Origin: a virus
Taxonomy: Duplodnaviria; Heunggongvirae; Uroviricota; Caudoviricetes
Length of the DNA: 10,577 bases
Direction: 5' to 3' (one strand)
Virus record (IMG/VR): IMGVR_UViG_2744054675_000008
Location: 1-10,577 of that record
Under the pieces are notes generated by a model, which had not been told where the DNA came from, did not search any database, and was given only the letters and a program-made list of their open reading frames with translations. The translations under genes were made by a program, and so were the position numbers. This document shows positions 9,591 through 10,577 of this stretch, one piece after another; the first letter of the stretch is position 1, and the number at the start of each line of letters is the position of its first letter.

Positions 9591-9764
9591 AGTTGTGATT
9601 ATCACTTTGGTGATGATAGTGATTGCGAGAATCATGTCTGGTGAAATTGGGTGGATATGGTAATGACCAAGGCAGCAGCAGAGCGCAACTAACAATCCTC
9701 GCACTCGCGGGGATTTCTTTTATCTGAACTCGCTACGGCGGGTTTTGTTTTATGGAGATGATAA

Positions 9765-9932
9765 ATGCACTTCCGAGTCACAGGTGAATGGAATGGAGAG
9801 CCATTCAACAGGGTTATCGAAGCAGAGGACATCAACGACTGCTATAACCACTGGATGATATGGGCGCAGATAGCACATGCAGACGTAACCAATATTCGAA
9901 TTGAAGAACTGAAAGAACACCAAGCCGCCTGA
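9765..9932 (+). CDS. Small ORF (55 aa, MHFRVTGEWNGEPFNRVIEAEDINDCYNHWMIWAQIAHADVTNIRIEELKEHQAA); not in the supplied ORF track
   Basis: ATG at 9765 preceded by GGAG at 7-nt spacing; stop codon TGA forms the loop of the downstream terminator hairpin. Preferred over the overlapping minus-strand track ORF 9750-9956, which has no Shine-Dalgarno. Confidence 0.45.
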   Translation: MHFRVTGEWNGEPFNRVIEAEDINDCYNHWMIWAQIAHADVTNIRIEELKEHQAA

Positions 9933-9947
9933 TGGCGGTTTTTTTAT
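9923..9947 (+). terminator. Rho-independent terminator-like hairpin (AGCCGCC tgat GGCGGTT followed by TTTTTTATT)
   Basis: 6-7 bp GC-rich stem, 4-nt loop, T-tract; followed 2 nt later by GGAG and the next ATG. Confidence 0.6.
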
Positions 9948-9959
9948 TGGAGACAAGAA

Positions 9960-10268
9960 ATGTCAGATTTGGCTATGAAGGTTTTGAAATGGCAATCGAC
10001 TGGCGATGTCGGCATCAGTAGCGCAACTCTTGCCTCAATCGCATGTGGCCTGAAAAAGAATATCTATGGTCATCACTTCGGCGCTCCCCATGACGCAGCA
10101 GACTTTCGGCGATGCGTTGCACTTGTTGAGCAGATTCCAGAAATCAGAGATTCATTCGGCAAGGTTGCAAAGCGCGTTCCGGCATTCAAAGGGATCCTCA
10201 ACGAATGGGATTCCCTAGTTGCTCTGTTGAAGTCTGAAATGAAGATACACGGAAACAAAGCACCATAG
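9960..10268 (+). CDS. Hypothetical protein (102 aa), moron-like gene bracketed by terminator hairpins
   Basis: ATG preceded by GGAG at 7-nt spacing. No family recognised. Confidence 0.5.
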   Translation: MSDLAMKVLKWQSTGDVGISSATLASIACGLKKNIYGHHFGAPHDAADFRRCVALVEQIPEIRDSFGKVAKRVPAFKGILNEWDSLVALLKSEMKIHGNKAP

Positions 10269-10344
10269 ACTTACAGAAGAATTAGCGAGTTACGCAAGGA
10301 CTAACCACAGCCTCACACTCGATGAGGCCTGTTCATATCTGATA

Positions 10345-10370
10345 GAGCCGCTGTATGGCGGTTTATTTTT
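10345..10370 (+). terminator. Rho-independent terminator-like hairpin (GAGCCGC tgtatg GCGGTTT followed by ATTTTTG), a near-copy of the 9923-9947 element
   Basis: GC-rich stem with T-rich tail; again followed by GGAG and an ATG (10386). Confidence 0.5.
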
Positions 10371-10385
10371 GCCTGGAGAATTAAG

Positions 10386-10577
10386 ATGACCGATACCAGC
10401 CTGATTCCTGAGAAAGAAGTGATGAACAAGCTCGGTGTTTCATCACGTCAGACAATCTGGAACTATACCAAACGGCACGGATTTCCGAAGCCAGTCAGAA
10501 CCCACCCCAAATCATACCTTCGTGAAGCTGTTGAAGGGTGGATTCTTAACGGTGGCGTTAATCAGAAATGCTCCTGA
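10386..10577 (+). CDS. AlpA/Xis-family helix-turn-helix protein (63 aa), possible excisionase or integrase regulator
   Basis: LIPEKEVMNKLGVSSRQTIWNYTKRHGFPKPVRTHPKSYLREAVEGWI fits the AlpA/excisionase winged-HTH pattern (FPKP motif, conserved Trp). Complete ORF ending with TGA at the window edge. Confidence 0.65.
   Translation: MTDTSLIPEKEVMNKLGVSSRQTIWNYTKRHGFPKPVRTHPKSYLREAVEGWILNGGVNQKCS

Follow-up and report, generated by a model that had tools for sequence, protein, structure and literature searches.

The window, i.e. the whole 10,577-nucleotide stretch of viral DNA that was analysed, ends in a series of compact gene units on the + strand, each consisting of a Shine-Dalgarno site, an open reading frame (ORF) and a hairpin resembling an intrinsic terminator. 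Downstream of a DUF551 gene (8670-9590, + strand), the elements follow in the order T1-T2 (two hairpins), orf55, T3, orf102, a scrap of a P22-type xis, T4 and a probable AlpA-type excisionase gene (alpA). ORF calling confirmed the 55-aa ORF (9765-9932), the 102-aa ORF (9960-10268) and the 63-aa AlpA-like ORF (10386-10577), and all ORFs, hairpins and repeats that had been listed in an earlier, sequence-only reading of this DNA were recovered to within 1 nt.

Terminator-like hairpins

Four strong terminator-like hairpins were found within approximately 680 nt, all on the + strand and oriented with transcription, each with 8-9 base pairs (4-5 of them GC), a 4-nt loop and at least 5 T in 8 nt. T1 (9694-9725, hairpin 9694-9715; -13.1 kcal/mol, z -5.4) is directly followed by T2 (9726-9757, hairpin 9726-9745; -11.0 kcal/mol, z -3.4), which ends in the GGAG (9754-9757) serving orf55. 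T3 (9922-9952, hairpin 9922-9941; -13.2 kcal/mol, z -3.1) includes a GGAG at 9949-9952 and holds the orf55 stop codon TGA (9930-9932) within its loop, while T4 (10345-10378, hairpin 10345-10364; -10.8 kcal/mol, z -1.45) includes the GGAG (10375-10378) serving alpA and is the weakest of the four, with 18 of 200 shuffled sequences folding equally well. The GGAG of T2, T3 and T4 is separated from an ATG by exactly 7 nt in each case. T4 is a diverged copy of T3, and the description of these two as near-copies in the sequence-only reading was borne out by direct repeats of 23 nt that are 83% identical without gaps and have ATGGCGGTTT in common. That reading had also placed hairpins between the genes; the two that it named were found, but T1 and T2, upstream of the 55-aa ORF, had escaped it. 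The segment 8600-10577 contains 7 terminator-like sites as against 1.6 ± 1.3 in shuffled sequences, and the sole comparable site elsewhere on the + strand of the window is a tR1-like hairpin 3' of cro (4836-4855). An Rfam search of the whole window (E ≤ 1) gave zero matches in this region and just weak terminator-like ones elsewhere.

T1, T2 and T3 correspond to the predicted lambda terminators t3, t4 and t5 (Table 4 of PMC4195576), which were obtained with ARNold (PMC4195576). T1 carries the annotation 'tL4 terminator' in the HK022 record X51962. For T3, the records of HK140 and phage L give a rho-independent terminator, and the P22 record has a terminator on the other strand, belonging to the antisense aI RNA. 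The terminator annotations in lambda, HK022, HK140, L and P22 are predictions or unreferenced features carrying no experimental tag. Searching the literature for 'tL4' brought up nothing of relevance.

Small genes, an xis remnant and the moron definition

The product of orf55 (9765-9932, + strand) is a homologue of lambda Orf55 (lambdap35, NP_597778), to which 53 of its 55 residues are identical (96%), and it matches phrog_676 with an E value of 2e-39 across 55/55 positions; its homologues fall into 98 clusters. The structure model (pLDDT 90) has the elements E2-9, E12-19, H23-37 and E41-49, a beta-beta-alpha-beta topology that was likewise reported when Orf55 was named and modelled earlier (PMC8614690). 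With both a full-length match and the fold in agreement, the orf55 product belongs to the lambda Orf55 family (phrog_676), and the statement in the sequence-only reading that neither small protein resembles a family that can be named is outdated for the 55-aa ORF (PMC8614690). Searches of Pfam, NCBIfam and PADLOC gave zero matches for the 55-aa and 102/114-aa proteins, and PDB sequence searches with the small proteins gave none either. lambdap35 was not among the targets of a lambda CRISPRi screen.

orf102 (9960-10268, + strand) corresponds to a 114-aa phage protein (phrog_1229) cut short by a nonsense codon. Its codon 103 is TAG, compared with GAG in four relatives, in which the protein extends to 114 aa, and in the window the frame runs on to a TAA at 10302-10304; no 102-aa homologue occurred among the matches listed. 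Coding evidence comes from third-position bias in the full-length gene (orf114) and from protein families with real substitutions. The 114-aa family is large (2782 representatives) and uncharacterised, its conserved motifs are W, GxSS, PxDxxDxxRC and W, and modelling confidently predicts a new all-helical fold. Pfam analysis of 20 longer members identified only two fusions, one with a dATP/dGTP pyrophosphohydrolase and one with a CCA-adding enzyme plus HD domain, which are too few for inferring the function of the family, and cluster look-ups yielded no names. P22 EaC, whose gene shares the leader and ATGTCAG, was considered as a homologue and rejected (BLASTP E 0.74). The residual value of the 114-aa protein lies in this combination of a very large unnamed phage family, a confidently predicted new fold and conserved motifs.

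The 3' end of the truncated frame is followed by non-coding DNA left over from the 5' part of a P22-type xis gene (HSLTLDEAC...; 10306-10340, + strand), which is 91% identical to the start of phage L xis; compared with the eaC/xis junction of P22, the identity is 79% across 66 nt. No in-frame ATG for this remnant was present in the window, and a further hairpin inside it (10310-10328) has no T-tract. The last gene, alpA (10386-10577, + strand), probably encodes an AlpA-type excisionase or recombination directionality factor, as assigned from phrog_66 and from RefSeq naming in relatives: its product matches phrog_66 ('excisionase and transcriptional regulator') with an E value of 1.9e-8, scores 17.8 bits against Pfam Phage_AlpA (PF05930), i.e. 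under the cut-off of 21, and the identical gene is named AlpA family by RefSeq in HK140 and HK544. The window stops at the alpA stop codon and the adjacency of an integrase was therefore read in relatives; an integrase gene runs convergently towards alpA in E212, MS1657, HK140 and HK544, sharing 20 nt with its 3' end.

The sequence-only reading had likened these genes to a cassette of morons. In the definition of Hendrix and Juhala, a moron has its own promoter and terminator and a deviant GC content, and is expressed from the repressed prophage (PMC3594210). A predicted hairpin with a T-tract follows each ORF, and the comparative check for variable presence that had been proposed gave a positive result: the 114-aa gene and its downstream hairpin T4, and these only, come and go as an extra unit between the same neighbours in collinear phages. 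HK022, E212, MS1657 and others carry the 114-aa gene, whereas lambda, HK140 and E. coli strain 41 do not. In a set of 5426 complete E. coli genomes, what comes after the 3' end of orf55 and T3 is the 114-aa gene in 471 cases, alpA in 235 and a lambda-type xis in 1748. (A K-12 match for which e14 had been considered as the source proved to be the lambda prophage of strain J53, beside ybhC.) However, a consensus scan, which weak or activator-dependent promoters could escape, detected no sigma-70-like site on the + strand of 8600-10577, and the GC contents of orf55 (0.470), orf102 (0.479), alpA (0.474) and the DUF551 gene (0.496) do not deviate from that of the window (0.487). The 114-aa gene is the sole insertion-like unit, yet it falls outside the moron definition because it has neither a promoter-like site nor a GC anomaly. 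It is very unlikely that orf55 and/or the 102/114-aa gene are true morons, that is, autonomous units insulated by their own terminators and expressed from the repressed prophage for defence, anti-defence or fitness. The small size and phage restriction of the proteins would fit such a role, as would the variable presence and the hairpin at every gene, but PADLOC found no defence-system match for either small protein, the intergenic gaps consist wholly of hairpin and Shine-Dalgarno site (27 nt from orf55 to orf102), orf102 is cut by a nonsense codon in the window, and the canonical place of these genes is within the pL early operon, which is headed by N in MS1657. Of the cassette as originally described, what stands is the compact units and the variable presence of one of them; the absence of a promoter-like site, the unremarkable GC content and the early-operon position speak against calling that unit a moron.

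Recombination seams, operon setting and fate of the window copy

When the region was compared with 17 loci, breakpoints of inter-phage homology clustered at the hairpins: at 9690 (7 loci), 9728, 9944/9945 (5 loci), 10336-10340 (4 loci) and 10346. The T3 T-tract is followed by at least six different sequences in other phages, and the 60-nt T1-T2 block hardly changes among E. coli and Salmonella phages in which the flanking DNA is unrelated, preceding another gene, an orf114 homologue, in the Salmonella phages. The hairpins are probably the seams for cassette swapping, T1-T2 and T3/T4 being kept while their flanks change. A stronger form of this proposal, in which the hairpins act mainly as recombination adapters that supply homology to Red, RecT or Erf for single-gene swaps and terminate transcription only incidentally, would also account for T4 as a copy of T3 and for the RecT, Erf or Rad52-type recombinases encoded by these phages, such enzymes being known to promote relaxed homologous exchange (PMC3945230). 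We nevertheless regard it as unlikely. The hairpins show full intrinsic-terminator anatomy and all point along the operon, several breakpoints lie away from them (9762, 9881-9885, 9966 and 10256), and the stems contain substitutions that preserve pairing, with a U-G pair of T2 becoming U-A in HK140, E212 and Sakai, and one pair of T3 varying between G-U, A-U and G-C across relatives. The two roles can, moreover, coexist. Highly doubtful is the further proposition that the hairpin/T-tract/Shine-Dalgarno blocks are portable adapters which, with RecT, Erf or Red, would drive an integrase-free, integron-like swapping of genes beside xis, the swapped genes, including the 114-aa family, being early host-takeover or anti-defence factors. 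The coincidence of hairpins and breakpoints makes the locus a clean test bed for single-gene exchange in lambdoid phages.

The far end of the window is most probably the xis-proximal end of the lambdoid early-left accessory module (the 'exo-xis' or b-region), as suggested by nucleotide comparison, in which it is 96-98% identical to lambda, HK022, HK140, E212 and Stx phages. In these relatives the matching module always lies 5' of xis/int where the end of the record is annotated, as the closing part of the early operon; this operon begins with the N antiterminator gene in MS1657, and in lambda and HK022 it is the one driven by pL. Transcription of the exo-xis region from pL has been described (PMC4195576), the pairing of internal terminators with processive antitermination follows a general logic (PMC8955417), and N- or put-antiterminated pL transcription is established for lambda-type phages generally (PMC4195576, PMC8955417); in HK022, put RNA takes the place of N in antitermination (PMC9378689). 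In its normal setting, the module would be transcribed from pL by an RNA polymerase made terminator-resistant by N (lambda/Stx-type) or by put RNA (HK022), and the four terminators would therefore be read through after induction or infection. Unmodified polymerase arising from spurious starts, read-in or leaky transcription in the lysogen would be halted ahead of the excisionase gene and, in lambda and HK022, also ahead of the CII-dependent pI promoter directly 3' of the last hairpin. We infer termination at the hairpins in vivo, its override by antitermination and the resulting protection of xis from this arrangement. The weakness of T4 speaks against this, as do substitutions in E212 and strain 41 that weaken the stems of T3 and T1. 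The lambda leader 3' of T3 contains a TTGC-N6-TTGC motif, which we take to be the CII-binding site of pI; no CII-type TTGC-N6-TTGC site was found near alpA in the region.

The window copy is placed differently, lying not behind pL but downstream of cro-cII-O-P, on the same strand as cro-O-P and 3' of DUF1064, Ea22 and DUF551 genes. Its homology to the lambda ea8.5-xis region is that of an exo-xis member, but its position is not the end of a leftward early operon. An unsystematic look through the window showed neither an N-like gene nor a nut site, and given this location the antitermination argument may not apply to the window copy. The module has recombined onto an epsilon15-like rightward early operon at the 3' end of the DUF551 gene, in its final ~40 nt; the last ~40-60 nt of this gene (9534-9574) hold the join between epsilon15-like and lambdoid DNA, in a segment common to both phage types. 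Such a junction, with a lambdoid xis-proximal module attached to the early region of an epsilon15-like prophage, is unusual: the whole window arrangement occurred in 0 of 5426 complete E. coli genomes, and in epsilon15-like relatives DUF551 is followed by terminase instead. Exact matching gave no hit for the DUF551 product among proteins, for a 71-mer in IMG/VR or for a 54-mer in GTDB genomes. Considering both the nonsense codon of orf102 and the recombined position, the window module may be a poorly expressed relic.

The same observations raise a possible, though less than probable, explanation, namely an inert scar or a chimeric assembly at this locus, in which recombination or mis-assembly across the shared DUF551 3' end fused an epsilon15-like early region to the xis/int side of another prophage, a lambdoid one, leaving the genes stranded and decaying behind two tandem terminators. 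Its appeal derives from the arrangement being found in none of the genomes, the terminase neighbour in epsilon15-like relatives, the join within a shared segment, the premature TAG in orf102 with no 102-aa homologue among the matches listed, and the integrase that relatives carry just beyond each end of the window. However, orf55 and alpA are intact, and mosaicism of the DUF551 and Ea22 genes is seen in all of these phages, which means that similar joins also occur in viable ones.

Just downstream of the join, an unannotated 28-codon hydrophobic ORF of uncertain status (MPPVKVVIITLVMIVIARIMSGEIGWIW; 9577-9663, + strand) contains the palindrome GTGATTATCAC and GTGAT repeats, which had been put forward as a possible regulator-binding site. 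The palindrome is present at 9595-9605, one base from where it had been placed, and four GTGAT pentamers do fall within 29 nt; their window-wide count of 31, however, is not above chance, and the repeats correspond to Val-Ile and Val-Met codons of this ORF, so that a regulator site need not be invoked. E212 differs by 2 substitutions but retains the frame, and the segment is present in 222 E. coli genomes with no separate gene annotated there among the records listed; a PHROG search with the ORF gave no match.

As judged from nucleotide comparison, the region is mosaic phage DNA of an ordinary kind rather than a novel defence cassette, because it is 96-98% identical to lambda, HK022, HK140 and E212. 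It is also already known, near-identical stretches of lambda, HK022 and HK140 having been sequenced since the 1980s, and its practical importance is small, the hairpins being already listed as predicted terminators and the 55-aa gene named and modelled.

Comparison with known systems

Lambda (ea8.5, t3, t4, orf55, t5, pI/xis) is collinear with the window for T1, T2, orf55 and T3, with 97.3% identity over the 255 nt of 9690-9944. The predicted terminator stems are identical to those of the window, with one difference in the T1 T-tract, and the orf55 stop codon lies in the loop of the last hairpin as it does in T3. Lambda differs in passing from T3 straight to the pI promoter and a lambda-type xis, without the 114-aa gene, T4 or alpA, and in carrying the module in the pL operon, whereas the window copy comes after rightward replication and Ea22/DUF551 genes. 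P22 and phage L match window 9885-9967 (orf55 3' end, T3, Shine-Dalgarno site and ATGTCAG) at 98-99% and contain the xis 5' end that survives in the window as the remnant at 10306-10340. In P22, however, the hairpin is annotated for the C1-activated antisense RNA (aI), and eaC, the gene 3' of it, has no relationship to the one for the 114-aa protein. The morons of HK97 and HK022 (e.g. HK97 gene 15) resemble the 114-aa unit in being an extra gene with a terminator that is absent from collinear relatives, but they have their own promoter, deviant GC and expression from the repressed prophage (PMC3594210), of which the promoter and GC traits were not found in the window.

HK022 (X51962) matches 9692-10340 at 96.9%, encompassing T1, T2, orf55, T3, a full 114-aa gene and the P22-type xis remnant. 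It differs in ending with another hairpin, CGCCGCATCAATGCGGC, and a lambda-type xis/int, and the orf55 in its record shows a gap of 1 nt when aligned with the window. HK140, HK544, E212 and Stx2 phages contain the same alpA and leader GCCTGGAGAATTAAGATG, the same type of hairpin before it and a convergent integrase overlapping the alpA 3' end, but in all of these the module ends a leftward early operon. HK140 is without the 114-aa gene, so that T3 itself abuts the alpA leader, and HK544 is without orf55, whereas E212 gives a contiguous match to window 9550-10577 at 96.7%.

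Genes and hairpins of the xis-proximal module

Three ORFs on the + strand occupy the xis-proximal end of the window: orf55 (9765-9932, 55 aa), orf102 (9960-10268, 102 aa), a nonsense-truncated copy of a 114-aa gene, and the AlpA-like ORF alpA (10386-10577, 63 aa), the stop codon of which is the exact window end. A consensus terminator scan identified four + strand hairpins, namely T1 (9694-9715; -13.1 kcal/mol, z -5.4), T2 (9726-9745; -11.0 kcal/mol, z -3.4), T3 (9922-9941; -13.2 kcal/mol, z -3.1) and T4 (10345-10364; -10.8 kcal/mol, z -1.45), T4 therefore being the weakest. Seven terminator-like sites were found within 8600-10577 versus 1.6 +/- 1.3 in shuffles, and the sole other strong + strand site in the whole window is a tR1-like hairpin (4836-4855) right after cro, between that gene and the cII-like gene. 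T3 and T4 are direct repeats (23 nt, 83% identity), GGAG, exactly 7 nt and ATG follow T2, T3 and T4 alike, and the T3 loop contains the orf55 stop codon. ORF calls, terminator scan, folding and repeat comparison thus bore out the sequence-only reading of three ORFs with hairpin/T-tract, GGAG and ATG units and two near-copy hairpins (T3 and T4), which had however overlooked T1 and T2.

Orf55 is identical to lambda lambdap35 at 53 of 55 residues and matched phrog_676 over its full length; its homologues fall into 98 clusters, enterobacterial without exception. A published model of lambdap35, there named Orf55, shows a small beta-beta-alpha-beta protein, for which a role involving RNA polymerase was offered as speculation (PMC8614690), and the structure predicted here (pLDDT 90) has that topology. 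The orf102 product matched phrog_1229. The match to lambda Orf55 removed the 55-aa protein from those first thought to resemble no nameable family, a description that stood for the 102-aa protein as far as Pfam, NCBIfam and PADLOC are concerned, where searches with the 102/114-aa protein returned no match. Codon 103 of orf102 (10266-10268) is TAG where four relatives have GAG, cutting off the conserved C-terminal helix (AP.TY.R.K.L) of the phrog_1229 protein, and no 102-aa homologue was present among the matches listed in the protein search. Substitutions among copies of the gene are mostly third-position (3, 2 and 13 by codon position in E212), a pattern that marks the 114-aa gene as coding. 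A profile search recovered 2782 family representatives, taken at the 50% identity level, at E <= 0.001, of which 506 reach E <= 1e-10, with conserved residues W11, G18-x-S-S, G30, P43-x-D-x-x-D-x-x-R-C52, P60 and W83. The domain stands alone or forms the N- or C-terminal part of 190-560-aa proteins, including one fusion with a CCA-adding enzyme and HD domain (P0283) and one with a dATP/dGTP pyrophosphohydrolase (P0157); BFVD matches to its fold come, among others, from Clavibacter phages and from a giant-virus bin.

Upstream of T1, a palindrome (9595-9605) and four GTGAT pentamers within 29 nt had been proposed as a regulator binding site. The palindrome and all four pentamers lie inside an unannotated hydrophobic ORF of 28 codons (9577-9663, + strand; MPPVKVVIITLVMIVIARIMSGEIGWIW) and the pentamers are its Val-Ile and Val-Met codons, so that a regulator site is not required to explain them. 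This ORF has AGGA 10 nt before its ATG, overlaps the DUF551 stop codon and keeps its frame in E212 despite two substitutions, and 222 E. coli genomes contain the segment, O157:H7 Stx prophages among them. None of the listed records annotates a separate gene at the matching stretch, and a PHROG search gave no match; the ORF could encode a small membrane peptide or could be mere chance.

A join between two prophage types

Positions 1 to ~9574 represent an epsilon15/BPP-1-like early region, from the prophage type that integrates next to guaA, with the gene order DUF1382, MT-A70, PerC, AlpA-like, RecT, exonuclease, cI, cro, cII, O, P, DUF1064, Ea22, DUF551. In epsilon15/BPP-1-like relatives DUF551 is followed by terminase, whereas in the window it is followed by the lambdoid xis end. 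Homology switches within 9534-9574, inside the DUF551 3' end, which places the module behind the rightward operon, its relation to cI being the opposite of the normal lambdoid one. Relatives carry an integrase just beyond either end of the window-equivalent stretch. The whole arrangement was absent from 5426 complete E. coli genomes, which together with the orf102 nonsense codon suggests a recombinant between two prophages that may be defective; an assembly chimera at the join is possible.

Within the backbone, a second AlpA-family gene (1244-1492, - strand; Pfam 24.2 bits, above cut-off) lies in the leftward operon, so that with alpA the window holds two AlpA/Xis-like proteins from two different integration modules. 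A strong terminator ends the cI-like gene (3806-3825, - strand), and its weak Rfam Phe_leader match (E 0.42) reflects the terminator part only. Inside the O-like gene (5181-5996), the 20-nt sequence TGGGATCATTCAACATCCCG occurs twice without change, the copies lying 24 nt apart (5531-5574, - strand). They coincide with a repeated PKNGMLND peptide in the encoded replication protein and are probable origin iterons.

Breakpoints at hairpins and the 114-aa insertion

When the window was compared with 17 fetched loci, homology began or ended immediately ahead of T1 (9690) in seven of them, within the T-tract of T3 (9944/9945) in five and immediately ahead of T4 (10336-10340) in four. Further breakpoints are at 9728, which separates T1 from T2, and at 10346; a minority are intragenic (9762, 9881-9885, 9966 and 10256). 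The 60-nt T1-T2 block is nearly invariant with unalignable flanks, and in the Salmonella P22-like phages SPN9CC (fetched locus 700-1130) and BIS08P22 it leads directly, without orf55, to a 114-aa gene homologue with the N-terminus MSDLAMKV. At least six kinds of sequence follow the T3 T-tract: the 114-aa gene leader, P22/L eaC (its leader common with that gene, diverging only past ATGTCAG), the lambda pI/xis leader, the alpA leader, a 933W-type xis leader and torI-region sequence. In E. coli LH10-b-1 (fetched locus ~4193-4260), where an internal stop codon interrupts orf55, ATTACCTGATTTGCAGGTTCGATTCC stands between the T-tract and torI; GGTTCGATTCC resembles the 3' fragment of a tRNA. Positions 10306-10340 are what is left of a P22-type xis, namely its first ~12 codons in non-coding form (HSLTLDEAC...; HSLTLDEACSYL). 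This fossil of an earlier arrangement holds a 6-bp hairpin without T-tract, and HK022 has kept a longer piece of it.

The hairpins could alternatively serve as recombination adapters. Recombinases of RecT, Erf or Rad52 type promote relaxed homologous exchange (PMC3945230), and the compared phages carry such recombinases. Stem changes preserve pairing (U-G to U-A in T2; G-U, A-U or G-C at one T3 pair), evidence limited by the high identity of the copies, and E212 and strain 41 have one weakening change each. A seam role is compatible with a terminator role and may be a consequence of hairpin conservation.

Only the 114-aa gene acts as an insertion between the compared phages. T3 leads directly to the pI/xis leader in lambda and E. 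coli strain 41 and to the alpA leader in HK140; HK022 has T3, the 114-aa gene, a different hairpin and xis, and the window and E212 have T3, the 114-aa gene, T4 and alpA. Among the 5426 genomes, queried with the Orf55 3' end plus T3, T3 joins the 114-aa gene in 471, alpA in 235 and lambda-type xis in 1748; the junction of 114-aa gene, T4 and alpA occurs in 274. The whole cassette had been read as moron-like. Under the definition of PMC3594210 the claim survives in a loose sense for the 114-aa gene, an indel, but the rest is not insertion-like, a consensus scan found no promoter-like site on the + strand of 8600-10577, GC content of the cassette genes is indistinguishable from that of their neighbours, and the usual place of the module is inside the early-left operon. 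The lambda and phi24B exo-xis region is described as pL-transcribed (PMC4195576). In the relative MS1657 the early-left operon starts with N.

Proposed antitermination and lambdoid counterparts

Antitermination by lambda N and HK022 put is established, and from both, taken with the way in which internal terminators and processive antitermination generally work together (PMC8955417), we infer that N- or put-modified pL complexes would pass T1-T4, so that the module genes would be delayed-early products, while unmodified polymerases would be halted at the hairpins, leaving xis/alpA silent in the lysogen. Immediately downstream of the last hairpin in lambda and HK022 lies TTGC-N6-TTGC, which we take to be the CII site of pI, a position that would fit a function as insulator. 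With its stop codon inside the T3 loop, orf55 would bring its last ribosomes onto the T3 stem, and translation may thereby reduce transcription termination there.

From ~9550 to 10577 the window is 96-98% identical to the DNA that immediately precedes xis/int in numerous lambdoid phages, among them E212, HK022, mEp234, HK140 and many Stx phages. Its alpA is identical to the HK140/HK544 gene named 'AlpA family regulatory protein', and a convergent integrase overlaps the alpA 3' end by 20 nt in HK140, HK544, E212 and MS1657. In lambda, the interval from ea8.5 to xis holds T1, T2, orf55 and T3, arranged as in the window, and the three stem sequences are identical to predicted terminators t3, t4 and t5 of the lambda exo-xis region (PMC4195576 Table 4). 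The T1 counterpart is annotated 'tL4 terminator' in the HK022 int-xis record and the T3 counterpart as a terminator in those of HK140 and phage L. In the curated P22 record (BK000583, fetched locus 1838-2360), the T3-homologous hairpin is entered as terminator of the antisense, C1-activated 'aI RNA', for which the putative C1-activated promoter lies within eaC; given this annotation, T3-type hairpins may act bidirectionally. The minus-strand T-tract of T3 is poor in the window (CTTGGTGTTC). Taken as a whole, this is lambdoid mosaic DNA of a known and ordinary kind, the remaining interest of which lies in the 114-aa family without a name, the predicted terminators and the clean association of hairpins with breakpoints.
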